A DNA stretch of 62,796 nucleotides from the IMG/VR virus record IMGVR_UViG_3300012971_000022, positions 1 to 62,796 of that record, one strand, 5' to 3'. The notes beneath the pieces are model-generated. The model was not told the origin of the DNA and searched no databases. It was given only the letters and a program-made list of their open reading frames with translations. The translations under genes and the position numbers were made by a program. Position 1 is the first letter of the stretch; every line of letters starts with the position of its first letter. The DNA is from a virus (lineage: Duplodnaviria; Caudoviricetes). Positions 7,972-35,722 of this stretch are shown here, piece by piece.

Positions 7972-8793
7972 CTATCTCTCCCCGGGCCGCTTCCTTCTCG
8001 GTGGTGGCGCTGCCTTTCGGGCCGGAGCCGCAGCACGCTGCGCCGGTCTCTGTGGTGCGGCTCTCTGCTGAGGTGGCGGCACGTTGCTCGCCAGACCGCC
8101 GAGGAAAGGATTACCGCTCGGGGCAGTTTGTGCTGGTGGTGCGGGCGCGGGCGGAGGAGCCTGCTGCGGCGGAGGTGGTGCCGGACTGGGTCCCGGAGGA
8201 GCGCCTTGGCCTCCGCCAGTCGGGGGCATGTTCATGTTGGGCAGTTGCGGCATCATGCCCATGCCTCCACCCAGCGGCATGAACGGCATTCCCATCCCGC
8301 CACCCATTCCCGGCATTTGCAGGTTGCTAAACATGCTTCCGCCACCCGGCATCGGAGGCGGTGCCATCCCCGGTCCCATCACCGGCATCTGCGCGCCTTG
8401 CCATCCGCCCGCAGGCATTGGTCCACCTTGCGGCATTGGACCTCCCTGTCCTCCCGGTCCGAATTGCGGAGCGGGACCGGTTGTCGAACCACCGCTCATC
8501 AATCGCGCGATGGCTGAGGGGTCCATGCTGGTGCTGGGAGGCACACCCGGCTGTCCGCCGCCTTGTGGCTGCTGGGCCATCCACGCGTTCATGTCCTGCC
8601 CCGGTCCCCCCGGCCCATAGGACGGAGGTGGCATTCCCTGTCCGCCCGTCCCCTGTGGCATTGGCTGCGGAGCCATCCCCGCTGGCTGTCCCATCCACCT
8701 CGGCGGCATTTGCGCTCCCGTGGTCATCCCGCCGCCTCCAAAGCCGCCCTGCCCGCCGCCCATCTGTTGCTGTTGCCCCTGCTGTCCGCCCAT
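7972..8793 (-). CDS. Low-complexity G/P/M/Q-rich protein
   Basis: TGATG-coupled start MGGQQG; disordered composition with basic C-terminus. Confidence 0.7.
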   Translation of the reverse strand: MGGQQGQQQQMGGGQGGFGGGGMTTGAQMPPRWMGQPAGMAPQPMPQGTGGQGMPPPSYGPGGPGQDMNAWMAQQPQGGGQPGVPPSTSMDPSAIARLMSGGSTTGPAPQFGPGGQGGPMPQGGPMPAGGWQGAQMPVMGPGMAPPPMPGGGSMFSNLQMPGMGGGMGMPFMPLGGGMGMMPQLPNMNMPPTGGGQGAPPGPSPAPPPPQQAPPPAPAPPAQTAPSGNPFLGGLASNVPPPQQRAAPQRPAQRAAAPARKAAPPPRRKRPGER

Positions 8794-9552: not shown

Positions 9553-10163
9553 TCGTCGAGCACCGGGTTATGCGGCGGTTCGCCGTTGTTAAAAGGACCC
9601 TTGAGCAGGTCGGCGGCTGATTGTCCGGGTGGCGGAGGGGGCGGCGCGGGTGGAGCTTGGATGATGGTCTTCTGTGCTTTGGCCGCGTTCGGGTTCTGCG
9701 GCCGCTGGAAGTTGGTTCCGGTGTTGCCGTGGAACAGGTCGTTGGCGACGGCTTCTTCCTGCTTCTCACGCATGCGCGCCTGCCCGTGCGCACGGCAGTA
9801 GAGCTTGAGCGTGCCGTTGCCCATCGGCTCGCTGAAGGCCGCTTCCTGTCCACACACTGCGCAGGGGCGTTGAACCGCTGTCAGAGGCGGCGCAGGAGCG
9901 GCGCGGTCCTGCACAACCACCGTATTGGGGGGAATCTGCGATGATTGTGCCGCCACCGGCTGCGCCGCCACGGTCGGCGATTGCGTGGTGACCTTGACGA
10001 CCTTGAAGCCCGCCGCATTGAGCAGGTCGAGAATCGTCTCCAGCCTCTCCAGCACCATCTCTCCGACCGCCAGCTTCTTGGTTTCGATCTCGATAAGCCT
10101 GCTGGTATCGCGCGTGCGCTTTTCGATTTCGGCCTTGAGTTTCTTGCCGTTGGTTTCCATCAC
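9549..10163 (-). CDS. Coiled-coil/zinc-finger Pro-rich protein
   Basis: CAVC...YCRAH; operon packing. Confidence 0.7.
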   Translation of the reverse strand: MMETNGKKLKAEIEKRTRDTSRLIEIETKKLAVGEMVLERLETILDLLNAAGFKVVKVTTQSPTVAAQPVAAQSSQIPPNTVVVQDRAAPAPPLTAVQRPCAVCGQEAAFSEPMGNGTLKLYCRAHGQARMREKQEEAVANDLFHGNTGTNFQRPQNPNAAKAQKTIIQAPPAPPPPPPGQSAADLLKGPFNNGEPPHNPVLDE

Positions 10164-10426
10164 ACCTTAGGCACCACCAGACCAGAGAGTTGTTGGGTGG
10201 CGAGTTTCTCAGCCAGATCCGCAGCCATTCGCGAGGTATTGCGGAGTAGCTCCAGTCCACCCTCGTAGACCCGGATGGTCATCTCGGCCACTTCGCGTGG
10301 TCCCTGCGCGAATTGCGCAATGCACACCAGCTTCGCTTCGCAAATCTGGCCATCCCCGGTCAGGTTGAATACCCGCCCGAGCCAGTTGAGAGGAACGCCT
10401 ACTTGTGGTTGGTTGCCGTCGTTCAT
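10160..10426 (-). CDS. Hypothetical protein
   Basis: ATGA overlap with the portal stop. Confidence 0.7.
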   Translation of the reverse strand: MNDGNQPQVGVPLNWLGRVFNLTGDGQICEAKLVCIAQFAQGPREVAEMTIRVYEGGLELLRNTSRMAADLAEKLATQQLSGLVVPKV

Positions 10427-12585
10427 TGTACCGGTCCTTGTTCAGGTGGCCGCTGCGGCGGCGGCTGCATCATCTGCTGCATCGACATCTGTTGCTCGTG
10501 CTGCTGCGCCTGCGCTTCGCGGGCCGCGTTCACCCGGTCCATCAAAGCTTGGTGTGCGTGCTCGGTACGCCGATGAGCATGCTCGGCGCGTTTGGAGATC
10601 ACGTCAGCTGCGTGTTCCGCCACGCCCATCCGCATGTCGTGCTGCATCTTCTGCGCTTCCATGATGGTGCGCTGGGTCTCTGCGCCCATCTTCTGAATCT
10701 TGGCCTGCGTGAACGCCGGGTCTTCCTTCGGCCCGGGCGGCTTGCCCTGACCCTTGGGCGGAGGCGGCGGCGTGTTCGCAACCGCCTGCTGAATTTCCTG
10801 CACCAGCTGGGTCGGGAAGTGCGAGAACTTCATCCCCTTCAGCAGGATCTGCTGGCCCGCCGGGAGCTTGAGCAGCGGCTGAGCAATTTGTAGCAAATCC
10901 TGCCAGACCTGTTCCTTTAGGTTGGGGTTATAGCGGACGGACTGGTCGACGACCATCTCGTAGTGCATCGGGAGGTCGGATTTGAGGAGCGGAATGGACT
11001 GGGAGTTGAAATTCCCGCCGATATTTATGAACTGCCCGTGCGACCAGTACTCGCGGATGAACTCCAACTCGGTGGCAGCAACATCCTTCTTGTACGCGCT
11101 GATGTTGTCCCAGAGCCAACCAAGGATCGCCAGCCCTCCCTGCAATCGGCGATCGATGGCTGGTCCGGTTTGCTGCTGGGTTGCGGTGCCGACCATCTCA
11201 TCCGAGACTCCGCTGATGCGAGTCATGGAGTTCTTGCTCTCCTGAAAGAGCATGGTCGGGAACTGGCTGACCTGCTTCGCCTCGCGCGGCATGATGTCGC
11301 GCTGCAAGTCCGCATCGCGGTTCGCTTCGACCCACGCGTCAGGTTGCGCCCACTGGTTCTTCGCCATCTGGCTGTCGGCGAACGTGCCAGTCTTGAAAAT
11401 GATCCCGCCTTTCGCGTTGGTTATATATTCAACGACCAGCGCGCTGATCGACTTGTTCATGGTCGACTGCGGGTCCTTGAGACCACGAACCACGCCGTAG
11501 AGGACTTTCTGATCGCTGTCCCACTGGCCGGTGATGACTTTGTGGGTGAAATCTCCGGGCAGCACGACCGGGTCTTCGAGCACCACTCCGATGGCGACGT
11601 AGACCTGCTTGTACACGCCGCGCAGCTGGCGCACCGCCTTGGGTGGCGGCGTCCCGCCGATCTTCGACTTGGTCTTCATCGCGTCCCACTGCTCTTGGGT
11701 GAGCGAGATGAGACCGTCGGGATTGTTGGGGTCCGCGATGCGCCACACCGGCACTTTATCCAGCCACTGGTACTGGATGACCGGGATGTTGGCGACCGCT
11801 GCGGTCGGTTGCAGTTCCAGCGCCGGGTTCGCCTTCTCGTTCTGCAGGCTGTAGTACGGAGTGACCATCTCGTACTTCTCGACGCTGTCCTCCGAGTAGT
11901 AAATTGCCGCCTGATCGATGATGTTGAGCTTCCCCGGCCAGCGCTTCTCGAAGTCCTTGCGCGAGTAGTTCTTGATGCGCGCGTCCCACTTGCGATCGGA
12001 GAGGTTCTTGGCGCGGGCTTTCTGGTCCCAGACGTACTCCATGTTGTCGAAGTGGTACTTGAAGACGATGCCGTCTTCCTCGGTGTCGTAGTTCATGCAG
12101 ATGTCCACGACCCCAAGCCCGGTGACCAGCGCATCCTTGATGGCGAGCGAATCCTCAATCTCGCCGTCGTTCATGTCCTCCACAGTGGCGACTGATTCGG
12201 TGGCGAGATCCCCGGCCGCGTCGTGCATGACGTCGGAGTCCAGCGGGCGCGAGACAAACCGGACCTCGCCCCGGTTCATGCGCTCGATGCCGCTGATCGC
12301 GTCGACCTTGTTGCCGATTTCATTGAAGGTAAGCGCGGGGCGGCGCAATTGCTCCATCCGCATCTTGTCGATGTCCGGCCACTGGTGGCCCAAGTAGTAG
12401 CGGGTGTCTTCGCGCGCGGCCGCGCGCCATTTGTTCACCCCGCCCATCGCACCGTTGACGTCGCGCATGACCTTGTCGGCAAGGTCCTGCATCTCCTCGG
12501 TGTCGTTGACCGCGAACGCGAGCTTGGAGGACGGGGTGTCGCGCCCCGCGTCGGTCAACTCTTGCAGGAAATTATCAGCCGCCAT
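10423..12585 (-). CDS. Portal protein, P22-like
   Basis: ED..YY.G.QW, RPALTFN.I, G.ER.NR, YGVVR.LKDPQ...NK..S motifs; 720 aa with C-terminal coiled coil. Confidence 0.92.
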   Translation of the reverse strand: MAADNFLQELTDAGRDTPSSKLAFAVNDTEEMQDLADKVMRDVNGAMGGVNKWRAAAREDTRYYLGHQWPDIDKMRMEQLRRPALTFNEIGNKVDAISGIERMNRGEVRFVSRPLDSDVMHDAAGDLATESVATVEDMNDGEIEDSLAIKDALVTGLGVVDICMNYDTEEDGIVFKYHFDNMEYVWDQKARAKNLSDRKWDARIKNYSRKDFEKRWPGKLNIIDQAAIYYSEDSVEKYEMVTPYYSLQNEKANPALELQPTAAVANIPVIQYQWLDKVPVWRIADPNNPDGLISLTQEQWDAMKTKSKIGGTPPPKAVRQLRGVYKQVYVAIGVVLEDPVVLPGDFTHKVITGQWDSDQKVLYGVVRGLKDPQSTMNKSISALVVEYITNAKGGIIFKTGTFADSQMAKNQWAQPDAWVEANRDADLQRDIMPREAKQVSQFPTMLFQESKNSMTRISGVSDEMVGTATQQQTGPAIDRRLQGGLAILGWLWDNISAYKKDVAATELEFIREYWSHGQFINIGGNFNSQSIPLLKSDLPMHYEMVVDQSVRYNPNLKEQVWQDLLQIAQPLLKLPAGQQILLKGMKFSHFPTQLVQEIQQAVANTPPPPPKGQGKPPGPKEDPAFTQAKIQKMGAETQRTIMEAQKMQHDMRMGVAEHAADVISKRAEHAHRRTEHAHQALMDRVNAAREAQAQQHEQQMSMQQMMQPPPQRPPEQGPVQ

Positions 12586-17241: not shown

Positions 17242-17956
17242 TTCTTCCTCCCAGCAACCGGAGCAGGGCGAGTTGCTGCATCATGTCGCCGCCTCCCGGC
17301 ATGGTGGTCTTGCCACCCGGCTGCGGAACCGTCGACACGGCCGGACTGAATTTCGAGACCTCCGGACCCGGAGGAGCGGGGGACTTGGGCGGCATCCCCG
17401 GTGGCGGGGGTGGAGGTGGCGCATTGGCTGCGCCGCCAAGAGCCCCCATCGCGCCCTGCGCCAGCGCTCCGCCTCCGGGACTCTTGAGAAAATCCATGAT
17501 CCCGCCACCCCCGGCCCCGGCCCCGAATTGGCCTCCGGGAGCTTCAGCTGCGGAGAGACCCTGAGCACCCTGCTGGATGAGTTTGAGATCCTCTGGCCCG
17601 AGCGCCTGCCCTGCCGGAAACCCCGGCATTCCGCCGCCGGGAGCAATCGAACCCTTGTAGGGAATATTGGACCCCAGCCCCCCTAATGTTGCGGCCGATG
17701 TATCGGCAGGGCCGAGCATTCCACCCAACGGCCCCAGCCCGCCGAATCCCTCGCCGAGACCGCCGACGGCTCCGCCGATGGCTTCACCCATCGCGCCACC
17801 CTTCGTACCGCCTGCGCCGGTCCCGGCCAACTGGCCGACACCCGCCGTCATCATCGGGATGGCAATCCCCTGCGCGCCGGGGACGAACATCAGGCCCGCA
17901 CCGAGCGCCGTTTGCAGACCACCGCTCACATAGTTGGTTGTCTTGCTTCCGCCCAT
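17234..17956 (-). CDS. Gly-rich putative ejection protein
   Basis: TGATG-coupled start MGGSKTT; glycine-zipper hydrophobic segments. Confidence 0.65.
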   Translation of the reverse strand: MGGSKTTNYVSGGLQTALGAGLMFVPGAQGIAIPMMTAGVGQLAGTGAGGTKGGAMGEAIGGAVGGLGEGFGGLGPLGGMLGPADTSAATLGGLGSNIPYKGSIAPGGGMPGFPAGQALGPEDLKLIQQGAQGLSAAEAPGGQFGAGAGGGGIMDFLKSPGGGALAQGAMGALGGAANAPPPPPPPGMPPKSPAPPGPEVSKFSPAVSTVPQPGGKTTMPGGGDMMQQLALLRLLGGRNG

Positions 17957-19587: not shown

Positions 19588-20402
19588 TTCATCGAGTTCT
19601 TATAACCAGTGGTTCCACCCATCATCATGTTGAAGTTGGGTTGCGACTGGAGCGGAGTGAAACCGGCCTGCTGAGTCTGTGGAATTGAACCCGGCGTAAT
19701 CCCCGACATGGTCGGCGGCACTTGCGGCTGCGCTACCTGCTGGGTCATTCCGGTTGGTACCCCGTACCCGCTTGGCGGCGGAGTGAATCCTCCGGGCGTA
19801 TTGAATGATGGAGTCGACGCGTACATCGGGTACGCGGTGGACGAGAAGCCGCCCAGTGGCGGGTATCCCCCCGATGTCCCCGGTCCGTAACCTCCGCCCC
19901 CTCCGCCTCCTCCTGACGACTGGGGCGTCGAAGACAGGGTTGGCGTCCCGGAAGTTCCCCCCACCATCGTGCCACCACCCGGTTGCTGGGCGAGGTTCCA
20001 ACTCCCGGGCAGGTTTACCGCGTCGGGAGCTACCGCTTGCGCGGGCGGAGGAGGTGGTGGCGGGGGTGGGGGTGGAGGAGGCGGTGGTGGAGGGGGAGGT
20101 GGCGCGGGTGGTGGCGGCGCAGGAGGGGGTGCTGGTGGAGGCGGTGGGGGAGGCGGCGGAGGAGGTGGGGCTCCATCCGTGCTCAATTGCCCGCCACCCG
20201 ACAAAAGCGCGTACGCCTGCGCGGGGCTCAGCGCGGCCTGCTGGGCCGGGGTCAGAGCGTTGACCGGTGCATAGTACTGCTGGACCTGCTGCTGTAGCTG
20301 CGGCGACCAGTTTTGGGGCAAACCCGACAGGTCAACAGTTGGCAACCCGCCGTAGATGCCGGAAGCGACACTGGTTGCGGTTGATTTCTTCTTGACGGCC
20401 AT
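19584..20402 (-). CDS. Polyproline-rich protein
   Basis: Abuts both neighbours; tract of about 40 residues that is almost all Pro. Confidence 0.7.
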   Translation of the reverse strand: MAVKKKSTATSVASGIYGGLPTVDLSGLPQNWSPQLQQQVQQYYAPVNALTPAQQAALSPAQAYALLSGGGQLSTDGAPPPPPPPPPPPPAPPPAPPPPAPPPPPPPPPPPPPPPPPPPPAQAVAPDAVNLPGSWNLAQQPGGGTMVGGTSGTPTLSSTPQSSGGGGGGGGYGPGTSGGYPPLGGFSSTAYPMYASTPSFNTPGGFTPPPSGYGVPTGMTQQVAQPQVPPTMSGITPGSIPQTQQAGFTPLQSQPNFNMMMGGTTGYKNSMK

Positions 20403-23644: not shown

Positions 23645-23816
23645 TGGACTTGGGGTCGGGCGCTTGGGCCGGGTTCTGCAACCTTACCCCGGTGGTCGGC
23701 GTCGCGGTCGGAGTGGGCTTCTTCTTGTGGCGGCGCGCCTGCGCGAAACCGGTCGACCACAGCATCACGAACACGGTGACCGCCACCACCCACAGCACGA
23801 TTACTGACTTAGCCAT
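23637..23816 (-). CDS. Small secreted/membrane PT-rich peptide
   Basis: Hydrophobic N-terminus ending AQA, then RRHKKKPTPTATPTT. Confidence 0.6.
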   Translation of the reverse strand: MAKSVIVLWVVAVTVFVMLWSTGFAQARRHKKKPTPTATPTTGVRLQNPAQAPDPKSIE

Positions 23817-25465
23817 GACCCGCCCCCGTCCCATGTTCCGTTCCTCCAGTGATCTTCCTGTGTCGGTCCGCCGTACGCGCGCGGGTAAACGTAGTTGATT
23901 TCCATTTCGTCGCACAAGCGCGAGAGCGCATCCAGCTGGTCGCGACAGCGCGGGTTGAACGGCCACTTGTCGTATTCAACTTCCCTGAACCTCTTGGTGA
24001 GGTCCACCTCCTGCCCATCGCGCCTGCGGCGCAGCAGGGTCTCCGGGAACAGAATGTCGCCGTTGCGGAATTTTGGAATCAGTCTTTCGATGCGCGCGTC
24101 CTTGGCCTGCATGCCGCCGATTTCTTGGATGGTGAAGAGGTAGTTTTCCCGGTTCTGCCGTTCGCGGAGATGTTCGATGTCGGACTGGAATGCGTATTGC
24201 TCGTAGACGACTTTGAGAGGTTCGTACTTCCGGACCAGATCAAAGAGCGTGTCTGCCCGTTCCGCAAGCGAAAGGTTATCCAGCACTCCGTCAATGACGC
24301 GCCACTTGCGATCGGCTCCAGCTGCGACCACCCAGAGTGCGAACTGTGAATTTGAATCAGCACGCCTGCCAGCGGGGTCCACGAGTATGTAACGGTTGAG
24401 ACTCTTGACGTTGAGGTCGCCCCGGTAGGTTTTGAACCACGCTGATTCGAACCCAATCTCGTGCGCCTCCTGAGCTTTCTTCGGGTCGAGCAGAAACTGC
24501 AGGGCGAAAATCTTGGGCGACATCTTCTGCTTGAAGTCGGCGAGCTTGGTCTCCGAGAAAAAGACCGGCGCGCCGTTCAAGTTGACCGCCGGGTGCAGCC
24601 GCAGCTTGAACACCCCGTTGCTCATGTAGTCGCACACCGTGTCGCCGATTTCCTGCGGGGTCCCAATGAGGCGCATGACCGGCGGATCACTGGCGGTGAG
24701 CGCGAAGCTGTTCTGCAGTTCCCGGGTGGTCTTCTGGATCATCTCCTCCGATATCTGATCCCGGGCCACGACGTCATCGTAGAGAAGGATCGAAAACCGT
24801 TTCGAAGTCGGTTGCCCGTCGATGAGACCCCACGCTTCGATTGTCGATTCCTTGATGTTACTCTTGCGCTTGACGATGATGCCGTCGTCGACCGACCACT
24901 TGATGCTTTCGCGCCGGGGTTGCTCATAGAGCACTTCGGGAAACAGGGACTTGAGATCATCGTTGGTTTCGAACTCCACCATGATCAGCCGCAGGAACTG
25001 TTTCGCCATGGGGCGATTGTGCGAAAAGATCCCTATTGTCTCATTCGCATCCCGCAGGATGTCCTGAATCGGCTGTGCGAAGGTGAGTATCTCACTCTTG
25101 GCGTGCTCACGCGCCCAGACATCGATGCACCCGTTGGGGCATGCCTGCACCTCGGTGCACCGCGCATGATACCATTCCGCGATTCGCTGCTTATGCTCTG
25201 GGGACAGGCCAGCCTGTTTGGGATTCTCTCCCGTCCAGTGCGTGCGGTGCAGGATGTAGCGGCCCAAGAAAAAAAGATCGTGTAGCGCCATCCAGCGCAG
25301 GTGCTCGTAGCGCATGCCCTCGCTGCAGTGCTGGAAGGAGTCCCAGAACAGCGCCGCTTCCTCGTAGGAGCGGGACAGGTGCGGCTCCGGGTGGGTGGTA
25401 CAGGGCCGGTGCTGCAAGAGCGCCGTGCGCAGGTCGCGCAGCATCGGGTTCTGGTTAACCGCCAT
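23801..25465 (-). CDS. terL: Terminase large subunit
   Basis: WAREHAKS Walker A variant, LLYDDVV Walker B, IGTP, YILVDPAG nuclease Asp, DQLDALS. Confidence 0.92.
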   Translation of the reverse strand: MAVNQNPMLRDLRTALLQHRPCTTHPEPHLSRSYEEAALFWDSFQHCSEGMRYEHLRWMALHDLFFLGRYILHRTHWTGENPKQAGLSPEHKQRIAEWYHARCTEVQACPNGCIDVWAREHAKSEILTFAQPIQDILRDANETIGIFSHNRPMAKQFLRLIMVEFETNDDLKSLFPEVLYEQPRRESIKWSVDDGIIVKRKSNIKESTIEAWGLIDGQPTSKRFSILLYDDVVARDQISEEMIQKTTRELQNSFALTASDPPVMRLIGTPQEIGDTVCDYMSNGVFKLRLHPAVNLNGAPVFFSETKLADFKQKMSPKIFALQFLLDPKKAQEAHEIGFESAWFKTYRGDLNVKSLNRYILVDPAGRRADSNSQFALWVVAAGADRKWRVIDGVLDNLSLAERADTLFDLVRKYEPLKVVYEQYAFQSDIEHLRERQNRENYLFTIQEIGGMQAKDARIERLIPKFRNGDILFPETLLRRRRDGQEVDLTKRFREVEYDKWPFNPRCRDQLDALSRLCDEMEINYVYPRAYGGPTQEDHWRNGTWDGGGSWLSQ

Positions 25466-27341: not shown

Positions 27342-27566
27342 ATATCAACAGGTACGCTACTGCCATTGCTTCTCACCACTCCCAGAACTTCATGACCAAT
27401 ATGCCCAGAATTCCCAGCGCCAACCAAAACGAGATGGCGTCAGGCCCCATCCGCCAAAACCTCCGCCTCCCCGGTACCCCTCCCCACTCCTCCACACTCA
27501 GCGCCTCCCTTACCTGCACCAACGCCCCCCACCCATGATCCCCCAACTTGCGCGTCTTGCGCCCCC

Positions 27567-27711
27567 CTACTTGAGCACCCATACCTTCATCCTCCTCTCC
27601 AACTCTCTCTCCAACTGCTTCAACCTCCTACTCACAAGCAACAACCATAGCGCAAATACCACCACCAATACCCACGGTACCACCAACAACGCCAATACCA
27701 CCCAATCCTCT
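27567..27711 (-). CDS. Small membrane protein (start approximate)
   Basis: One TM helix followed by a charged helix. Confidence 0.5.
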
Positions 27712-28535
27712 ACCCCGCTCAAAGGGACCCCAAGATGTTTTCGGAAAACGGTGCATAAGGGCGAGGAGGGTATGCATGAGGCAAAAAGGGGACCCCAAGT
27801 GCCAAAGCGGGTGTGGGGGTAAGGCATCCCCGGGCAGGGGGACCCTTGCTACCAAATCTGCAGGCACGCTGATTATACAATTTGATAATCTCACAAATAT
27901 CAAATCAGCTAGCAAGATAGCAGGTTGCTATCGATTCTGCTAACACGCGAGCAAGGCACTATGCGTCTTGCTATCATTTCTGCATATCCGCTGATTATCA
28001 TATTCCATAATATCGAGATATCAGAATGACTACATTTTCCCTGCCAGAACGCGTGAGAGCGTCGGCCGAGATGCTACGATACCACTACTCCAAAATCAAC
28101 CCATCCGCTTCGCGCAATTGGCATCGGCACGGACCACGGGTGCCTAACTATACTCGCAATAATGTGTATTGTCAGGAGCAAGTCAGGAGAAACGCACGGA
28201 AACGGGCTTCTCAGGCATTTGTAGGATTTTGCTACAGGCAATGAAATCAAGGGTTTTCGCTGTTTGTTCGGGGGGTTTAGGGTGTTGTGGCACCCTTTTG
28301 TAAGTAGCTGATATTGTTGGATAATTTTTTGGGATTAAAACGCGTCCTAGAGGCTCTATGCGGCCGTTGTCTATCTGAGATATACAAGACGATTATCCGC
28401 CCCAACATCTATATAGCTGCCCGTTTGAGTACTCGGGATTCCTGACTTTCTCACCACGATCATTATATGCGGCCGCGATAGCTGCCCGGGTGACTGTAGG
28501 CAGGCTGCTATCCTATTTGACTCTCATCTTGGGTA

Positions 28536-28564
28536 TTGACTCGATATCAGTCACATGGGATAAT
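28536..28564 (+). promoter_or_regulatory. Sigma70-like early promoter with palindromic spacer
   Basis: TTGACT-17bp-GATAAT with TGn extension; TGACT-CGATATC-AGTCA inverted repeat. Confidence 0.7.
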
Positions 28565-28596
28565 GCGCTTGAGTCTCTTATGACTCGGGAGAACAT

Positions 28597-28854
28597 ATGA
28601 CCGCTCAAAAGCCTTTCAATGGGATGGCGGACGCACACTTGCTGTCTGCCCGCGTGACTTACGACGCATGCGCGCGATCCTTTAAACGCGCGCAACGTCG
28701 GCACGATCGCGAGCAGGAGCGCGGAGCGTCCGATATCAGCGTCCGTCAAACCCGCAAGATGTATTTCGCGGCCGAAGCCTTGAGACGAGCAGGCTTTGCG
28801 CTGGCCACGGCCGAGCAATCGGTCAAATTCTGGACTCGCAAGGCAGGGGAGTAA
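28597..28854 (+). CDS. Early hypothetical protein
   Basis: GGGAG RBS, first ORF after the promoter. Confidence 0.7.
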   Translation: MTAQKPFNGMADAHLLSARVTYDACARSFKRAQRRHDREQERGASDISVRQTRKMYFAAEALRRAGFALATAEQSVKFWTRKAGE

Positions 28855-28860
28855 CCAACA

Positions 28861-29664
28861 ATGCGAAAAGCTATCAATCTGATTACCGCGCTGGTCGCGC
28901 TCAAGTTTGGACGCGTCAACGCCAAGCTCAAAGGCAATCCACTTGCGGCCGACAAGACGATCGTCACGTTCAGTTTGCCCGCTGCTTGGACGTGCCCGGG
29001 TGCCAACCTTTGCAAGGCACGCGTTGCCCGGGATGGCGGACTCGTTGACGGTCCGAATGTCGAATTCCGTTGTTGGGCAGCATCCTTAGAGGCAATCCGC
29101 ACTAACGTCCGAAACGCACACTGGCACAACTTCGATATGCTCAAGCCCTACCTGAACGATGCGCGCAAGATGGCGGATATCATCGGGCAATCCTTGCCAC
29201 GGCGTGCCGATATCGTACGGGTGCATGAGTCCGGAGACTTTTTTAACGACGCGTACTTTCGCGCGTGGTGCCTAGTCGCGGCCGCGCACCCGAACGTCCT
29301 TTTCTACGCTTACACAAAATCGCTCAAGACGTGGATTGCCAATCGCGCGGCCGTGCCTGCCAATTTGGTTTTGACCGCATCGCGTGGCGGACTATGGGAT
29401 GAGCTTATCGATAAGCACGGGCTCAAGACTGCCCGCGTGGTCTTCTCAATTGAGCAGGCTTCGAAGCTTGGCTTGACGATCGATCATGATGACTCGGCCG
29501 CAATGGACGCCAACATCCGCGAATTCGCGCTCCTATTGCACGGCGTGCAGCCTGCCAAGTCCGAAGCTTCCCGGGCTCTAGTCGCCTTGAAAGGTATCGG
29601 CAGCTATTCCGAAAACACGGCCGAGAATCACGCGCGCGCGGCACGCGTCAACGCTCAACTTTAG
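28861..29664 (+). CDS. GP88-family protein
   Basis: GN.KL-like start, FSLPA..TCPGA..C...C.A, VRVHESGDF...Y..AW..A...P...FYAYTK. Confidence 0.85.
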   Translation: MRKAINLITALVALKFGRVNAKLKGNPLAADKTIVTFSLPAAWTCPGANLCKARVARDGGLVDGPNVEFRCWAASLEAIRTNVRNAHWHNFDMLKPYLNDARKMADIIGQSLPRRADIVRVHESGDFFNDAYFRAWCLVAAAHPNVLFYAYTKSLKTWIANRAAVPANLVLTASRGGLWDELIDKHGLKTARVVFSIEQASKLGLTIDHDDSAAMDANIREFALLLHGVQPAKSEASRALVALKGIGSYSENTAENHARAARVNAQL

Positions 29665-29742
29665 GTCGCTAGGAACTGCACCCGGGTGCAATGCCCGGGT
29701 GCCTCTAGCTAGCTGGCCTTTTGCGAGCAGGAGCAAGTGACA
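29663..29742 (+). repeat. Intergenic structured repeat, copy 1
   Basis: GCTAGGAACTG-hairpin(GCAA)-CCTCTAGCTAGCTGG...CGAGCAGGAGCAAGTGAC. Confidence 0.9.
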
Positions 29743-30600
29743 ATGGCAACTTTTCTCAATTCCGAAACGCGCTATCCGACGATGACCGATGACGATCACG
29801 CGGCCGATACCACGGCCGATATCGCGATAGCGTCGGTCGACTACTTCAATCGTGATGGCGGACGCGTGCAGGCTTTCGAACGTGACGGCGTGATGGTCTA
29901 CCGTCGCGCGTGCACCCGTTGTGGCGGCACGGGCACCACGCCTTGGGGAACCTGCTTTAGGTGCCGTGGCGGACGATGGGAGTCCAAGCCCGGGCGCGCC
30001 TATACGGCCGAAGAAGTCACGCGACTACGCGCGTCGGCCGAGCGTGCCGAAGCCCGTCAAGCCGAGCGTGCGGCCGAGCAGGCTCGGGTCAAAGCCGAGC
30101 AAGCGCGTGTGCGTGCCGCATCCTTCGAAGCTGACCACGGGGACGCAATCGCCGCCATCCGGGAAGCGGCACCCAACAGCGCGTTTTGTAACGACCTGCT
30201 CGCGAAGCTGACTCAATACGGATCGCTATCCGAGCGTCAGCTAGAAGCGGGTCACGCGGCCGCACGGCGCATCGCGGACGATCGCGCGCGTTGCGCGGGT
30301 TCGGTGCACGTCGGCACCGTCGGCGAGCGGCGCGTCTTTGACCTGACCATCGCAAAGGTTGTGACCCTGCCCGATCGCGGGTTCGGCGAGTCCTACCTGT
30401 TCATGATGGATGACCCTGACGGTAACCGGGTGCTGTACTTCGGCACGGCGCGCTTTCTGTCGACCGATACCGGCGCGCGCGTCCGCGTCAAGGCCACGGT
30501 CAAGCGCCATGACGAGCGCAACGGGGTCAAGCAGACCATCATCAATCGTCCGGCCGAGATGCCCGCACCCCTGACCGAAGTTGTGGAAGTCAAACTCTAA
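29743..30600 (+). CDS. Zinc-finger plus OB-fold-like protein
   Basis: CTRCGGTG...CFRCRG; HVGTVGER...D.DGN...YFG...KATVKRH.E.NGVKQT..NRP. Confidence 0.75.
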   Translation: MATFLNSETRYPTMTDDDHAADTTADIAIASVDYFNRDGGRVQAFERDGVMVYRRACTRCGGTGTTPWGTCFRCRGGRWESKPGRAYTAEEVTRLRASAERAEARQAERAAEQARVKAEQARVRAASFEADHGDAIAAIREAAPNSAFCNDLLAKLTQYGSLSERQLEAGHAAARRIADDRARCAGSVHVGTVGERRVFDLTIAKVVTLPDRGFGESYLFMMDDPDGNRVLYFGTARFLSTDTGARVRVKATVKRHDERNGVKQTIINRPAEMPAPLTEVVEVKL

Positions 30601-30677
30601 CACGCTGCTTGGAACTGCCCGGGCCGCAAGGCCCGGGCCTCTAGCAAGCTGGCGTCATGCGAGCAGGAGCAAGTGAA
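30601..30677 (+). repeat. Intergenic structured repeat, copy 2
   Basis: GCTTGGAACTG-CCCGGGCC GCAA GGCCCGGG-CCTCTAGCAAGCTGG...CGAGCAGGAGCAAGTGA. Confidence 0.9.
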
Positions 30678-31139
30678 ATGCAATTCGACCAAAACACCCG
30701 CCATCTGATCGTCAAGGCGCTTGACCAGCTGGCCACAACGTCAACCGTCCGGCGCAACGGCGCTATCGAAGCGCGCGACCCGGCCGTGCAAGCGGCCGTC
30801 GTGGCGCTAACGCAGCTGCTCAACAATATGGAACCGGTCGACCGTGACGCGCGTGGCTTGCGCCACGTCCTAGACCGCATCGAACCCGAACGCGACGCGT
30901 ACCGCTCGGTGCTGGGCGCGTTGCACGCGGAGCTACAAAACGTCGTCGACTACTCGGACGATCAGTTCTACGTCCGCGAGATGATCGCGCATTTCCTGAC
31001 CGCGATCGAAGGTGCGACCAACCGGCCTGCCTTTGGCGGACTGCCGGTCGTCGAAGTCTTGAACACTCTGGAGACCCGCAAGAATAACGCCGTGCGCGCC
31101 ATGTTCGACCGTGGCCTGAGCGTGCACGCCAAGCGCTAG
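30678..31139 (+). CDS. Early hypothetical protein
   Basis: Start follows the RBS carried by the repeat. Confidence 0.75.
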   Translation: MQFDQNTRHLIVKALDQLATTSTVRRNGAIEARDPAVQAAVVALTQLLNNMEPVDRDARGLRHVLDRIEPERDAYRSVLGALHAELQNVVDYSDDQFYVREMIAHFLTAIEGATNRPAFGGLPVVEVLNTLETRKNNAVRAMFDRGLSVHAKR

Positions 31140-31217
31140 ACGCTGCCTGAAACTGCCGGGGGAGCAATCCCCCGGCCTCTATCAAGCTGGCAACTGGCGA
31201 GCAGGAGCGAAGTGACA
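31140..31217 (+). repeat. Intergenic structured repeat, copy 3
   Basis: GCCTGAAACTG-CCGGGGGA GCAA TCCCCCGG-CCTCTATCAAGCTGG...CGAGCAGGAGCGAAGTGAC. Confidence 0.9.
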
Positions 31218-31448
31218 ATGAGTAACGCGAAACGAAAGCAGGACCTGATCGCGCGTGTGAATGAGCAGCGCGCTTGGGTCGACGAACACGGCGGAACCCT
31301 CGCGGGTTACGTCGCCAACTACCACGGCGTGCACGGCCGCACCGTCGAAAACGCCATGGCGATTTACAAGGCCGACAAGGCGGAACTCGAAAAGCTTGAG
31401 TGGATGCTCGGCCTGACGATCCACTCCATCAAGGGAGTACGCCGATGA
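31218..31448 (+). CDS. Early hypothetical protein
   Basis: Start follows the RBS carried by the repeat. Confidence 0.75.
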   Translation: MSNAKRKQDLIARVNEQRAWVDEHGGTLAGYVANYHGVHGRTVENAMAIYKADKAELEKLEWMLGLTIHSIKGVRR

Positions 31449-31597
31449 TTGACCTAGGCATCGAAGCGCTTATCGAGTACCCGGCCATCGCCTATTACGG
31501 GCGCATTTGGCACGTCGAGTTTCACGACTGGACAACCGCGCTCGTCATCGAAGACGAGACCGAAAACTTTGTGCTCGAACCCGAGGTGAAGTCATGA
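31445..31597 (+). CDS. Small acidic early protein
   Basis: ATGA coupling, GGGAG RBS. Confidence 0.6.
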   Translation: MIDLGIEALIEYPAIAYYGRIWHVEFHDWTTALVIEDETENFVLEPEVKS

Positions 31598-31845
31598 ACC
31601 GTCAACGATTCGAGCGCGGCCGTAACCGGCTTGCGCGCTGCCGCTGTTGCGGCAACCTGACCCACTCCACGATGGACGGGCAACTCGATATCCGCATGTG
31701 CCGCGTCTGTCTGGAAAGCTCGGGACAGGAAAACGCCCACTCCGACGGGGGCGGACATGACCCGTTCAATCCCGCGTGTCCGACCTGCCGAGGCGTCGGC
31801 TGTCTGCATGAACTGGCGGACAAGGGACAGGTGCGACCGGCCTAG
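31594..31845 (+). CDS. Small zinc-binding early protein
   Basis: CRCC...CRVC...H...CPTC; ATGA coupling. Confidence 0.7.
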   Translation: MNRQRFERGRNRLARCRCCGNLTHSTMDGQLDIRMCRVCLESSGQENAHSDGGGHDPFNPACPTCRGVGCLHELADKGQVRPA

Positions 31846-31926
31846 GTGAGCCAGCCCGGGCGCAAGCCCGGGCCGTAACCCGCACCCCGGCGGAAAGCCC
31901 GGGGAGCCGGTGAGGAGTTAGTGACT

Positions 31927-32424
31927 ATGGGAGCATACGTTTACACGGCGCGCTCGCCGAAGCTGGCGCGCCACATACTGATCGAGTGGACCAACCCCAA
32001 CGGGCTCACCCAGTGGGAGCAAGAGTGGGGGGACGCGCTTTGTATGTCGTACCTGTACAAGCCGTCTTGGTCCATGCGCGACGACGATGCGAAGCGCTGG
32101 GGTCCGGTCATCGAGCGCCAAGAGCGTGCTTGGGATCATCTGCGCGTGCCGCGCTACGCGGTCATCGGTGACAAGGGCATCCGCAAGGGTGACTCGGTCA
32201 TCGACTGGGGCGAGGACAAGCGCGCGCGGCTTTCCTGCTACGACGATCCTGATTGGGGTCACTGCGTGCGAACCGGCCGGGTCCGCATCGTCTCGCCGAC
32301 GCTGCCGGACTTGCGCCTGACCTGCGAGTCTTGCGGCGCGTTCGTCCACTACCACGGCAACACGGTTTGCCTGCACTACAAGCGCGCGACCCGCGAGGTC
32401 TGCGAGCGTGGCAGCTGCTACTAA
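31927..32424 (+). CDS. Early hypothetical protein
   Basis: GAGGAG RBS; Cys-rich C-terminus. Confidence 0.7.
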   Translation: MGAYVYTARSPKLARHILIEWTNPNGLTQWEQEWGDALCMSYLYKPSWSMRDDDAKRWGPVIERQERAWDHLRVPRYAVIGDKGIRKGDSVIDWGEDKRARLSCYDDPDWGHCVRTGRVRIVSPTLPDLRLTCESCGAFVHYHGNTVCLHYKRATREVCERGSCY

Positions 32425-32627
32425 GCGTCGCGGCGACGCCGTGCAGCCAGTGTCGGCACCCCCGGCACTGGTCGCGCGGCCGTGCCGCGCATGCGGCGTC
32501 GAGCACCCGCGCAAGAAGCTCTCGACCTTCTCCGAGCTTTGCCTGCCCTGCCTCAAGCGCATCCTCGGAAAGCAATATGACAAGCGTCTCAATTTCTTTG
32601 AGGGGTAAAAGAATTTCAATCCAGTAC

Positions 32628-32656
32628 TTGACATGAAATTCAATTTGAGTCATTAT
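32628..32656 (+). promoter_or_regulatory. Sigma70-like promoter
   Basis: TTGACA-17bp-CATTAT in an AT-rich gap. Confidence 0.6.
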
Positions 32657-32709
32657 TCGAATATCACGGTGAGCCACTACCGAAAACGTGGCGGAGCAAG
32701 TGAGGTGTT

Positions 32710-33873
32710 ATGAAAAGCGGATTGACACTCCAACAGTTGGCGGAACAACTCGAAGCGGCCAAGAAAGCCCAGCGAGACTTTGTTGCGCCCGCACCGTTGC
32801 TGCGTGCAGCGGTTAACCCGGCTCAGACTGTCCAGTTGGCCATGAAGACCAACGGGCACGACGAGACCTTCAACGTCCGGCCGTACGCACACGGCCAGCT
32901 GGCCCAGCTGACGGGCATCCCCAAGGCGTACTACGACCGCATGGCGACCGAAGCGCCCAACCTGTTGGCGGACTCGCTCAACACTTGGCTGCGCATGCGG
33001 ACCGACGACCGCCAGCTGGTGCGCGTCGCTGGCCGCGACGTGCGCGCGATCCTCTCCGATCGCTACCGTCCGCTCGACAACGTGAACCTCGCCGAGGTCG
33101 CGCTGCCCGAACTGCTCAACCGTGGCGCGACCATCGAGTCCTGCCAGATCACCGAGACCAAGCTGTACATCAAGGCCGTACTGCCGACGCTGTCCCGGAC
33201 CATCAACGGTTCCGAGATGCGCGACCTCGCGACCTACGAGCAGGTCCCGGACCACGCGGCGCGCGTGGCTGAGAACCAGCGGCGCGGCTTCAAGGTCGGC
33301 GACGTGGTGCAGGCCATGGTCTGCCTCTCCAACAGCGAGGTCGGCGCGGGCACGTTGCGCGTCGAGGGCGGAGTCTACCGGCTGGTCTGCCTGAACGCCG
33401 CCATCAGCCCGGATGGCAGCTACCGCAAGTACCACATTGGCCGTGGCTTGGGCGGAGACGCGGAGGACGCAGTGCGGGCGCTCCTGACGGACGAGACCCG
33501 GCGCGCGGACGACAAAGCCCTCTGGCTGAAGGTGCGCGACGTCGTACGGGCCGCTTTTGATGAGCAGCGCTTCAACACGCAGTGCGACAAGCTCGAAGCG
33601 GCCACGCAGGACAAGATTGCGCTCGATAAGGGCGTGAGCTTGGAGCGGGTTGTCGAGCGCGTGGTCGAGAAGTTCTCGATTGGCGAGGCGACCGGCGGGT
33701 CCATCTTAAAGCACCTGATCGCGGGCGGCGACCTGTCCCGCTACGGCGTGGTGCAGGCGGTGACCCGGGCCTCGGCCGAGGTCGAGGACTACGACAACGC
33801 GACCGAACTGGAGCGCGTTGGCGGAAACATCGTGGAACTGTCCCGCGAGGACTGGAGGCAACTCGCGGCGTAG
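32710..33873 (+). CDS. DUF932 domain protein
   Basis: AH.QLA...GIP..YYDRM, RAILSDRYRPLDN, GD.VQA...SNSEVG.G, YRLVCLN. Confidence 0.85.
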   Translation: MKSGLTLQQLAEQLEAAKKAQRDFVAPAPLLRAAVNPAQTVQLAMKTNGHDETFNVRPYAHGQLAQLTGIPKAYYDRMATEAPNLLADSLNTWLRMRTDDRQLVRVAGRDVRAILSDRYRPLDNVNLAEVALPELLNRGATIESCQITETKLYIKAVLPTLSRTINGSEMRDLATYEQVPDHAARVAENQRRGFKVGDVVQAMVCLSNSEVGAGTLRVEGGVYRLVCLNAAISPDGSYRKYHIGRGLGGDAEDAVRALLTDETRRADDKALWLKVRDVVRAAFDEQRFNTQCDKLEAATQDKIALDKGVSLERVVERVVEKFSIGEATGGSILKHLIAGGDLSRYGVVQAVTRASAEVEDYDNATELERVGGNIVELSREDWRQLAA

Positions 33874-33955
33874 AGACTGCTTGGAACTGCCGGGGGCTTC
33901 GGCCCCCGGCCTCTAGCAAGCTGGGTCTCTACCGAGCAGGGAGCAAGTGACAACC
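33872..33955 (+). repeat. Intergenic structured repeat, copy 4
   Basis: AGAGACTGCTTGGAACTG-CCGGGGGC TTCG GCCCCCGG-CCTCTAGCAAGCTGGGTCTCT..CGAGCAGGGAGCAAGTGAC. Confidence 0.9.
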
Positions 33956-34126
33956 GTGCCCGAGATTTTCCTAGAAGACTACCAAGTCGACGCGCTCAGG
34001 AACCTGAGCAAGCGCCTGTACACCGAGAACCGGATGCACGGCGACGAGATGCGCGACTGGGCGCAAACCCTCCGGCTCATTGTCGAGGATATCGACAAGC
34101 AGAACACGCAGTACCCCAAAGAATGA
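33956..34126 (+). CDS. 56-aa early protein (not in ORF track)
   Basis: GTG start after the repeat RBS: MPEIFLEDYQVDALRNLSKRLYTENRMHGDEMRDWAQTL... Confidence 0.7.
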   Translation: MPEIFLEDYQVDALRNLSKRLYTENRMHGDEMRDWAQTLRLIVEDIDKQNTQYPKE

Positions 34127-34136
34127 CGGGCGAGTA

Positions 34137-34165
34137 TTGACAAGATATCCAGGTTGATATACAAG
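34137..34165 (+). promoter_or_regulatory. Possible sigma70-like promoter
   Basis: TTGACA-17bp-TACAAG. Confidence 0.45.
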
Positions 34166-34202
34166 TCTCCCAAGACGTAAATCCCAAAGGAGTGAGTGAC
34201 AA

Positions 34203-34412
34203 ATGAACAAGACTGAAGGTCGGTACAAGGTCGAGGTCATCGCCGACAACTCGGGCCAGTGGTGCAGCAACGCGCTGCGCTTCGACAGCTACGCGGATGC
34301 GGCGGTCTACGGCCAGCACCTCGCGTGGCGCTGGACTCTGGTCCGCAAGTTCCGGGTCTTCGATACCGAGACCAACGAGGTCGTCGAGGGCGAAGTCGAG
34401 GTGCGGTCATGA
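34203..34412 (+). CDS. Conserved small phage protein
   Basis: EVIADNSG.W.SNALRF....A...G..L..RW.LV; AAGGAG RBS. Confidence 0.8.
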   Translation: MNKTEGRYKVEVIADNSGQWCSNALRFDSYADAAVYGQHLAWRWTLVRKFRVFDTETNEVVEGEVEVRS

Positions 34413-34747
34413 GAATCACGATTAGGTCCACCACAAAGGTCGAGCGCGGATTCGAGCGTTGCAACGCACGCACCCTGCTGGCCGGGGTCGCCGGTCACCC
34501 GGACAACGAGACTTGCGGCAACACGGCCGATTACCGGCTGCTCATCTACCGGCGCGACCCCGCGCACATGCACCGCGCCGAGCGCTTCCACTATGTGTGC
34601 GGCGACTGTCTGGGCGCGGTCATCGAGGGGCTGCGCGACGATCGCTGCGTCCACATCACCCGCGAGGGCTACACATGTGGCTACGGGCGCGAGGAGCACG
34701 GCGAGGGCGCTGAGGGACGCAACCACGCGTTCAGGAGCGAGCCATGA
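34409..34747 (+). CDS. Cys/His-rich early protein
   Basis: ATGA coupling. Confidence 0.65.
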   Translation: MRITIRSTTKVERGFERCNARTLLAGVAGHPDNETCGNTADYRLLIYRRDPAHMHRAERFHYVCGDCLGAVIEGLRDDRCVHITREGYTCGYGREEHGEGAEGRNHAFRSEP

Positions 34748-35034
34748 TCGGCCTGTTCGTTTCCAAGACCGAAGCCGACGAGTTCCACCCGGACACCTGC
34801 CAGTTCCCGGTTCACCGGACCCGGCGCGTGGACGGACGCGAAGTTGACGACGGGTTCCGCGTATGCGGCGCGCCCGGGTACTTCGACGTGGCAACCCAGC
34901 TGATGGAGAAGGACCGCGAGGGCCGCTACATGCTGAGCCATACCAGCCACTACTGCGAGGAGCACGGGCGCAAGGTGATTGACTCCCTGTTGAACCTGCT
35001 CCACGCCGACGAAGACGAACAGGAGGAGTCATGA
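34744..35034 (+). CDS. Early zinc-binding protein
   Basis: AGGAG RBS; C...CG...YCEEH. Confidence 0.7.
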   Translation: MIGLFVSKTEADEFHPDTCQFPVHRTRRVDGREVDDGFRVCGAPGYFDVATQLMEKDREGRYMLSHTSHYCEEHGRKVIDSLLNLLHADEDEQEES

Positions 35035-35243
35035 GTATCGCCAAACCGGACCCGTCCGCGCTCGATGCCTGCTTGGACCAGATCGAGTCTGCCGAAACTC
35101 ACCTCGAACATGCTCGCCTGCTGCTCGGCCGGGGCAAGGCCATCATGGAATTCCGCGACCAACTCGACCGCGCGCTGAACGCCTGCGAGAAGGTGGCCAA
35201 GAACGTCGGCCGCACCCTGCAGGCGCTCAAGGAGGCATCGTGA
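35031..35243 (+). CDS. Small helical protein
   Basis: AGGAGG RBS, ATGA coupling. Confidence 0.7.
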   Translation: MSIAKPDPSALDACLDQIESAETHLEHARLLLGRGKAIMEFRDQLDRALNACEKVAKNVGRTLQALKEAS

Positions 35244-35722
35244 AGCTCGAAGCGTTTCGCCGCTTCAAGGTCGGCCAGTGGGTCGAGCTTCGCACCAGCC
35301 TGCACCACGTTCAGGGCTACGTCCTCAAGGTTGTCGACCAGCTGCACTCGCCCTCGAAAGAAGCGCTCGCCGAATACGCCGACACCATGCGGCGTGGCGG
35401 CTTCCGGGCCATGAACACGCGCAGGCCGGTCGCGATACAGCAGCGGCGGGTCTACGTCGGCCGCAACCCGCAAGACGATCCGCGCCTCGCGCCTTGGATA
35501 CTGGACATTCACAACATCCACGAGATCCGGCGCATCGTCGAAGGCGACGAGGCCATCCTCGAACGGCGCGCGGAACTGGCGCGCATCCGGGTCGAAGCCT
35601 GTCAGGTCAAGTACAAGGAAGCGGGCGACGCACTGGCAGCAGCCGAGCGTGCGTTGGTGTTCGCCAACCAGCAGCTGGAGAAACTCCGCACCCGGCCGAG
35701 TATCGAGGATGAGCAAGCGTAA
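35240..35722 (+). CDS. Hypothetical protein
   Basis: AAGGAGG RBS, GTGA coupling. Confidence 0.7.
   Translation: MKLEAFRRFKVGQWVELRTSLHHVQGYVLKVVDQLHSPSKEALAEYADTMRRGGFRAMNTRRPVAIQQRRVYVGRNPQDDPRLAPWILDIHNIHEIRRIVEGDEAILERRAELARIRVEACQVKYKEAGDALAAAERALVFANQQLEKLRTRPSIEDEQA

Follow-up and report, generated by a model that had tools for sequence, protein, structure and literature searches.

A repeated two-tier hairpin linking stop codons to ribosome-binding sites in the early region of a tailed phage

Described intergenic hairpins and the element in the window

Folded repeats between genes are known from several systems. REP elements are multi-copy intergenic hairpins of bacterial operons that block exonucleases, and in integrons each cassette is followed by an attC site, a folded repeat of conserved structure and variable sequence with an extrahelical base, an unpaired spacer and a variable terminal stem. 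The Correia elements of Neisseria are multi-copy intergenic inverted repeats which are co-transcribed and, as reported, can serve as binding or cleavage sites of RNase III (PMC2649163). In phage T7, according to the review of Nicholson, five RNase III signals process the early precursor of ~7000 nucleotides (nt) in Escherichia coli; loops at RNase III target sites lead to single-strand cuts and the resulting 3′ hairpins stabilise the RNA. The PeSLs of T4-type phages are described as stem-loop cassettes repeated between non-essential early genes, where recombination produces insertions, deletions and replacements (Arbiol et al. 2010; Comeau et al. 2014); excised circles have been reported for PeSLs as well. 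Cluster K mycobacteriophages carry the SAS/ESAS sequences (Pope et al. 2011, PMC3203893), in which a conserved motif containing a Shine-Dalgarno (SD) sequence precedes, in one orientation, some non-structural genes directly at their start codons. About half of these sites are preceded by imperfect inverted repeats of 17 base pairs (bp) with a spacer of 4–13 bp, and the associated genes differ between phages; a role as protein-binding site has been proposed for them. Here we describe a repeated hairpin in the IMG/VR virus record IMGVR_UViG_3300012971_000022, which was analysed over its whole length of 62,796 bp (completeness estimated as 67%) and is termed the window in the following. This element falls into no Rfam family, and it is neither SAS/ESAS nor PeSL nor attC; its probable mode of action comes closest to that of the T7 early signals, and in gene shuffling it resembles the PeSLs.

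The module has a size of ~80 nt, and each copy occupies all of the space between a stop codon and the following start. The initial annotation had described four copies, each joining a stop codon to the next ribosome-binding site. This number is returned both by a scan with the pattern AACTGC-N14-30-CCTCTA, which gives exactly four matches in the window, all on the plus strand (29674, 30613, 31151 and 33885; 0.06 expected from shuffles), and by repeat finding, which groups the same four stop-to-start copies as one family (D2). Their parts are listed below with the scores of the covariance model R2.

29662–29745, plus strand: copy 1; stop codon TAG 29662–29664, hairpin 29663–29719, 10-bp upper stem, loop GCAAU, GGAG tail, ATG 29743; 86.8 bits
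30598–30680, plus strand: copy 2; stop codon TAA 30598–30600, hairpin 30602–30655, 9-bp upper stem, GCAA loop, tail, ATG 30678; 95.9 bits
31134–31220, plus strand: copy 3; stop codon TAG 31137–31139, core hairpin 31142–31191 with a C·A mismatch in the inner stem, GCAA loop, tail, ATG 31218; 90.2 bits
33868–33958, plus strand: copy 4; stop codon TAG 33871–33873 within a 14-bp lower stem, hairpin 33870–33932, UUCG loop, tail CGAGCAGGGAGCAAGUGA, likely start GTG 33956; 83.9 bits

The element belongs to no already described Rfam family. The scan of the whole window against Rfam 15 at the gathering score gave no match, known ribozymes included, and a permissive scan of 27500–35500 at E values up to 10 gave merely six sub-threshold chance matches. 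Among GenBank phages, megablast and blastn found no match to the element, and tblastn with the 387-residue protein of the same region found distant phages only, all below 60% identity. Pattern scans of IMG/VR retrieved 1, 16 and 52 loci (the locus L005 in the first two) and protein-led scans 29, 1, 2 and 0 loci; the covariance search finds the element in none of them. Bacterial and archaeal genomes, one per species for ~185,000 species, yielded 21 pattern matches, all attributable to chance. A metagenome scan for the 3′ half plus the tail returned six loci, of which the sole true relative, L058, stems from a soil metagenome and constitutes the last 14.9 kb of a 54.7-kb contig. Further real copies were found by the covariance-model search of the retrieved loci only in this relative:

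6196–6291, 7861–7956, 8490–8582 and 9308–9435 of L058, sense strand: four copies, 31.6–56.8 bits (four-copy model)

With filters off, the covariance model detects nothing else in the window on either strand, not even a degenerate copy; across the 77.7 kb searched in this manner the next-best match scores at most 14.9 bits, and all 4 + 4 copies lie on the coding strand. DNA nearly identical to the window is present in 11 soil-metagenome sequencing runs (X1–X11), none of them registered as RNA, from which strain variants could be derived.

The element is not a SAS/ESAS sequence, because the 13-bp SAS consensus GGGATAGGAGCCC has no match before start codons in the window with up to two mismatches allowed. 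Moreover, ESAS is a simple 17-bp inverted repeat, whereas in the element a bulge and a 5/6-nt loop break up the arms, between which a further stem of 8–11 bp is enclosed; the argument published for SAS/ESAS, as far as that account extends, is not one of covariation, unlike that presented here, and the resemblance is one in kind only. With the PeSLs the element shares insertions, deletions and replacements between related phages that are bounded by the repeats, as seen in a contig of run X8 skipping 30653–31216 and in L058, where near-identical elements enclose different genes. In contrast, a PeSL consists of a sigma-70 promoter and a working terminator, and the element of a non-terminating hairpin and, within an operon, a ribosome site. 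The copies contain no promoter-like site and their stems are not followed by a U tract; the element, having neither promoter nor terminator, is therefore not a PeSL. Correia and REP elements differ in that they are chromosomal, reach hundreds of copies of either orientation and lack the fusion to a ribosome site. The folded-repeat features of attC resemble those of the element; however, the paired AAC/GTT boxes are absent here (AAC lies in the unpaired loop and has no GTT partner), strand and feature order differ, and an IntI-type integrase is not encoded in the record (67% complete) according to the search for PF00589.

Folded structure, covariation and the ribosome-site tail

All four window copies adopt, already upon unconstrained folding, a common architecture built from an outer stem, one bulged U (replaced by UG in copy 4), an inner stem of 5 bp, an internal loop, a GC upper stem and the tail, so that the outer stem with bulged U, the conserved internal loop and the variable, paired GC stem described in the initial annotation are seen in the folds of every copy. 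The inner stem is GCUUG/CAAGC, with GCUAG/CUAGC and GCCUG/CAAGC as variants, and the 5/6-nt internal loop has the composition (G/A)AACU / CUCUA(G/U). The upper stem measures 9–10 bp in the window copies, while the sequence of the outer stem is unique to each copy; the outer helix of copy 3, CGCUAG/CUGGCG, spans 31134–31199. Over eight copies, the lower stems comprise 8–14 bp and the upper stems 8–11 bp, with L058 copy r4 being branched. The fold energies of the window copies range from −39 to −48 kcal/mol, corresponding to z-scores of −2.3 to −3.3 versus shuffles, and those of the hairpin alone from −26.5 to −45.1 kcal/mol. When the bases of the internal loop are held unpaired as sole constraint, the shared architecture is obtained in 8/8 copies; two L058 copies with a C·A mismatch (6196–6291 and 8490–8582) fold differently if left unconstrained in a longer context. 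The apical loops are GCAA in copies 2 and 3 and UUCG in copy 4, as previously stated for all four, but copy 1 folds with a GCAAU pentaloop. The use of stable tetraloops as an argument for a function as RNA is weakened, because the copies of the relative lack GNRA or UUCG loops.

Several specific readings of the loop and stem were also considered. Neither a K-turn nor a loop E nor a tetraloop-receptor fits the internal loop when compared by eye with their consensus sequences. An anti-SD mimic of CUCU with GGAG would comprise only four pairs. A coding reading can be rejected, as the copies have no frame in common and the lengths of the upper stems differ by non-multiples of three.

The alignment of the eight copies provides evidence for the structure. 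Standard pairs occupy 89.5% of its 152 pair cells, double-sided changes occur at 10 of the 19 pairs and the covariation score was reached by none of 500 shuffles, compared with 23.5–56.1% pairing in slid-register controls; these figures are biased towards structure, since the model served to fit the alignment and the copies have a common ancestry. The covariation of the outer stems pointed out before (AGAGAC/GUCUCU, ACGCU/GGCGU) is present as stated, the covarying stems being GGUC/GGCC, ACGCU/GGCGU and AGAGACU/GGUCUCU. At the second inner pair, U-A is switched to A-U in two copies, and a C·A mismatch together with an extra A-U pair is shared by three copies, both lower-stem alleles being found in both phages. 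The loop bases AAC(U/C)G and CCUCUA, on the other hand, are invariant in 8/8 copies while both stems vary. Eight G·U cells, which would be A·C on the opposite strand, favour the sense strand, whereas three C·A cells would favour the opposite one. Run X4 shows the loss of one base from either arm of the copy 4 upper stem, in the G run (33892) on one side and in the C run (33903) on the other, at equal depth and in one contig each, which looks like a compensatory shortening by one pair. From the covariation, the G·U cells and the sense orientation of 8/8 copies we conclude that a folded sense strand, most simply the messenger RNA (mRNA), is under selection; the element would act as RNA.

The hairpin is followed by the tail GCGAGCAGGAGCAAGUGA, which contains GCGAGCAGGAGCAAG and runs to the start codon. 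Its sequence is as previously given in all four copies, but part of it belongs to the context in which the ribosome sites of early genes generally stand in this phage group. The stretch GGAGCAAG occurs six times in the window, five times before likely gene starts including those of 3/4 elements, and it is likewise found at early genes without hairpin (28175 and 32693 in the window; many genes in L058, e.g. at 5043, 5709, 5933 and 7313). Judged by this distribution, it is a shared translation-initiation signature of the phage group and not specific for the hairpin. The motif GCGAGCA accompanies 6/8 hairpins and is missing from hairpin-less ribosome sites; the specificity of the tail is limited to this motif, because GGAGCAAG also precedes genes without hairpin. 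Since the tail nearly repeats the 3′ strand of the inner stem (CAAGCUGG vs CGAGCAGG), an alternative pairing exists. The pairing of CUGCUUG with CGAGCAG proposed in the initial annotation can be read directly from the sequence as 7 bp in copies 2 and 4 and with one or two mismatches in the others. In addition, the 3′ strand can pair with the tail (GCUGGC..GCGAGC) to form a small hairpin just before the ribosome site, for which copy 4 and L058 7861–7956 offer two possible compensations, too few sequences to judge.

The stop codon in front of the element is UAG in 6/7 cases (29662, 31137 and 33871 in the window; stops ending at 6208, 7873 and 8496 in L058) versus 10/51 other gene ends (plus strand 3/24, minus strand 7/27), a preference with p ~0.001 in Fisher's test on copies that are not independent. 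In 4/7 copies the helix pairs two or more of the stop-codon bases.

Gene gain and loss at the copies

Strain variants in the sequencing runs and the arrangement in L058 both bear on the mobility of the flanking genes. One X8 contig (depth 3.6, 85 nt on the shorter side) follows copy 2 to 30653; the next 24 nt agree with the copy 3 tail except for minor differences, after which the window sequence is taken up again at 31216. Because 30653 is joined in this way to the copy 3 tail and to 31216, the contig indicates a strain devoid of the 153-residue gene (30678–31139) and equipped with one hybrid copy-2/3 element. In abundant contigs of runs X4 and X9 (depth 48 and 149) the element stands after a different gene, and the preceding sequence matches L058 copy 7861–7956. 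An X5 contig matches 30641–30673 only, with a different paired GC stem before and a different sequence after this segment.

The early region of L058 is partly syntenic with that of the window, seven pairs of open reading frames (ORFs) showing 36–88% amino-acid identity. In a DNA alignment over 14 kb, similarity is found at the elements (75–95%) and otherwise at three coding segments (68–88%) and one 31-nt stretch. By far the most conserved early gene codes for a cysteine-rich protein of ~112 residues without family match (34388–34733 vs L058 12508–12851; 88% at the DNA and 88% at the protein level). The elements are placed at other junctions. The gene for a protein of 285 residues is followed by copy 2 in the window and by no copy in L058. 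Canonical copies flank the 165-residue gene on both sides in L058, while its homologue in the window is preceded by two plain hairpins (31846–31926). The L058 gene corresponding to the 387-residue protein carries a copy in its 5′ leader, behind a TTGACA..TATATT promoter and with no gene upstream, and the upper stem of this leader copy contains a branched insertion of 32 nt. After the 387-residue gene, the window has copy 4 and L058 a true terminator, GGGGGGCUUCGGCCCCCC plus T9 (10618–10650). The apex of copy 4, GGGGGCUUCGGCCCCC (33891–33908), is the same stem-loop as in this T9 terminator, but without the U tract, and could reflect the capture of a hairpin or a convergence of G/C stems. Sub-types of the element, defined by outer stems (GGUC/GGCC, ACGCU/GGCG) and loop alleles (G..G, A..U), are present in both phages at non-homologous junctions.

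The strain contigs and the non-syntenic placement in L058 show that the copies are joints at which early genes have been gained, lost and replaced. The idea of a cassette-like gene exchange expressed in the initial annotation is borne out by the X8 contig, in which the gene between copies 2 and 3 is missing exactly, and by the other junctions in L058. The DNA copies are ~80% alike, and homologous recombination between them would add, remove and reshuffle early genes at these positions. Genes for an integrase, a resolvase of the tyrosine/serine recombinase type or RNase III were not found in the 62.8-kb record (67% complete), in which PF00589 has no match. Ordinary homologous recombination between the repeats is enough for the observed variants.

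Candidate functions and genomic setting

On the basis of the comparative analysis we tentatively favour, at somewhat less than even probability, the element as a processing or stabilising site in the early mRNA. In this scenario, the early message would form a long irregular helix consisting of an 8–14 bp lower stem, the 5/6-nt loop and an 8–11 bp GC upper stem, which often includes the upstream stop codon. Subsequently, most likely the RNase III of the host would cut at or near the internal loop, as it does at the five T7 early signals. The upstream cistron would be left with a very stable 3′ hairpin (−26 to −45 kcal/mol) that blocks exonucleases, and the downstream cistron would start with a short uniform leader ...CAAGCUGGC-N5-GCGAGCAGGAGCAAG-N4-6-AUG. 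This leader could form a small 5′ stem-loop and would present the same ribosome site whatever gene is located upstream.

The likeness to the T7 early RNase III sites noted in the initial annotation concerns the layout only and holds in kind. When folded, the T7 early intergenic regions give two-tier hairpins with upper stems of 9–13 bp, conserved flanks and variable apices, two of them with GCAA loops. Both systems are thus repeated families of two-tier hairpins with conserved flanks, variable apices and GCAA loops, and in both about two helical turns are split by an internal loop into an upper and a lower stem. Both are also found between cistrons and in a 5′ leader of the early message, which is made by the host polymerase in T7 and presumably also here; the T7 signal R0.3 lies in such a leader, and here 7/8 copies are arranged stop-to-start and 1/8 in a leader. 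The element differs from the T7 signals by its larger loop (5/6 nt), by GC-rich stems with GC pairs at the loop, by a helix that often holds the stop codon and by its fusion to a fixed ribosome-site tail.

Several observations weigh against a processing site. The element has no sequence similarity to the T7 signals. According to the review cited above, E. coli RNase III prefers UA/AU at position 2 of the proximal box, and GC at positions 2 or 4 blocks binding or cleavage. The upper-stem pairs beside the loop are G-C followed by C-G in 6/8 copies, at odds with these E. coli rules, although host and cut register may differ; the pair beside the loop is U-A in 2/8 copies, and the lower stem has U-A or A-U as its second pair in 8/8. 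The accessibility of the ribosome site calculated from the partition function is moderate (0.19–0.79) and gives no sign of insulation. Finally, the loop is larger and more conserved in sequence than RNase III needs, which better fits a sequence-specific partner.

A specific RNA-binding protein is therefore kept in play, because of the high conservation of the loop. The element might serve as operator for such a protein of phage or host, which would recognise loop and bulge and set the translation of the downstream gene or the stability of the message; we consider this rather unlikely. A protein-binding switch had also been named in the initial annotation. Invariant loop bases (8/8) between varying stems, the fusion to a ribosome site and the restriction of GCGAGCA to sites with hairpin are in its favour, and SAS/ESAS offers a parallel in kind with its SD-containing repeat, imperfect inverted repeats, variable spacer, single orientation and limitation to non-structural genes. 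Yet none of the scanned early proteins belongs to an RNA-binding family, no candidate protein emerged, only seven ORF pairs are shared by the two early regions, the window lacks the SAS consensus, and the function of SAS/ESAS is itself unverified as of 2025. Alternatively, a passive, REP-like hairpin might be sufficient, which without specific cut would act as barrier for 3′–5′ exonucleases and as spacer isolating the ribosome site from the upstream coding sequence. The high stability (−26.5 to −45.1 kcal/mol), the confinement to intergenic gaps and the non-conserved apical loops in L058 are compatible with this unlikely explanation, but it accounts neither for the invariant loop and conserved bulge nor for the maintained outer stem and the UAG preference, and plain GC hairpins are already in use at other junctions, e.g. 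31846–31926. A transcriptional pause or partial terminator is very improbable: GC-rich upper stems and the apex shared by copy 4 with the T9 terminator at the matching L058 position would agree with it, but CCUCUA instead of a U tract follows the stem in 8/8 copies, no copy appears in the list of the terminator scan, the phage group possesses canonical U-tract terminators, and lower stem and internal loop would have no explanation. Least probable of all is a new self-cleaving ribozyme, as considered in the initial annotation. Apart from the conserved internal loop in a stable helix nothing speaks for it, and it is opposed by the lack of Rfam ribozyme matches at E values up to 10, by the lack of any second domain or junction besides the one internal loop, and by an apex so freely variable that it tolerates a 32-nt insertion.

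The gene exchange at the copies raises the possibility, decidedly unlikely in our view, that the element is primarily a DNA element, i.e. a selfish or domesticated repeat for recombination (a cassette junction or a miniature mobile element) with the RNA fold as by-product. The gene skip in X8, the contigs of X4/X9 and X5 with the element beside other sequences and the sub-types at non-homologous junctions of both phages would suit such a repeat, and the PeSL cassettes of T4-type phages behave accordingly. In contrast, compensatory changes in unique outer stems, G·U pairs and 8/8 sense orientation indicate selection on a folded strand and not on duplex DNA. Target-site duplications were not detected, nor was a tyrosine or serine recombinase in the record, of which 67% is estimated to be present, and homologous recombination between repeats explains the variants. 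A still more specific, highly improbable proposal is that of a phage 'integron', in which a dedicated enzyme would recognise the fold and insert or excise single early genes exactly between stop codon and ribosome site. Unpaired loop, extrahelical base and variable terminal stem would then be the recognised features, and the mRNA fold would be cut or bound and thereby keep the inserted gene expressed.

Irrespective of its precise function, the element adds a well-supported structured RNA family, with covariation in eight copies and no Rfam match, to the few phages punctuating their early message with repeated hairpins. Unlike the T7 signals or PeSLs, it connects a non-terminating two-tier hairpin with a fixed ribosome-binding leader, and natural strains show such joints as sites of gene gain and loss. 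If the element is indeed cleaved, it would offer a parallel from nature to the processing sites built into operons by engineers to let the genes behave independently, and a compact part of defined structure with which the links among processing, stability and gene shuffling could be studied. The unexplained SAS/ESAS repeats may likewise become better understood through it.

The window derives from a tailed phage, as indicated by genes for the major head protein (2611–3696), the portal (10426–12585) and the large terminase (23804–25465), all on the minus strand; a Prim-Pol primase, a RusA resolvase and a PD-(D/E)XK nuclease are encoded further along the record, and transfer RNA genes are absent from it. 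A plus-strand block of small genes, mostly without annotated function, starts at ~28.5 kb after an AT-rich divergent control region. Copy 1 is placed in this block between a gene of the GP88 family upstream and the 285-residue gene downstream. The following further features of the block were identified.

28536–28564, plus strand: sigma-70-like promoter TTGACT-17-GATAAT (TG present), ahead of the first gene in the operon holding copies 1–3
32628–32656, plus strand: second sigma-70-like promoter TTGACA-17-CATTAT, upstream of the 387-residue gene that precedes copy 4
31846–31926, plus strand: variant junction without the element; two plain GC hairpins, then GGAGUUAGUGACUAUG; no match above 7.3 bits with covariance model R2

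The two promoters have the top scores in a consensus scan that returned 11 promoter-like sites versus 3.2 expected. Terminator-like sites on the plus strand of the operon are all weak, their number (16) compares with 13.6 expected from shuffles, and none overlaps with an element. It is plausible that the plus-strand block is an early operon transcribed as a single message. The hairpins of the variant junction are GCCCGGGC-GCAA-GCCCGGGC and CCCCGG..CCGGGG.

The divergent control region contains a 48-nt AT-rich repeat in two copies which are 73% alike (27845–27892 and 27967–28014). Each includes GCTGATTAT followed by a GATAAT- or CATAAT-like stretch, and they resemble duplicated operator/promoter sites. 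In the structural block, long GGN-rich repeats of the plus strand lie inside minus-strand ORFs (20026–20174, 8126–8208, 9628–9653 and 17364–17419) and would encode proline-rich runs.

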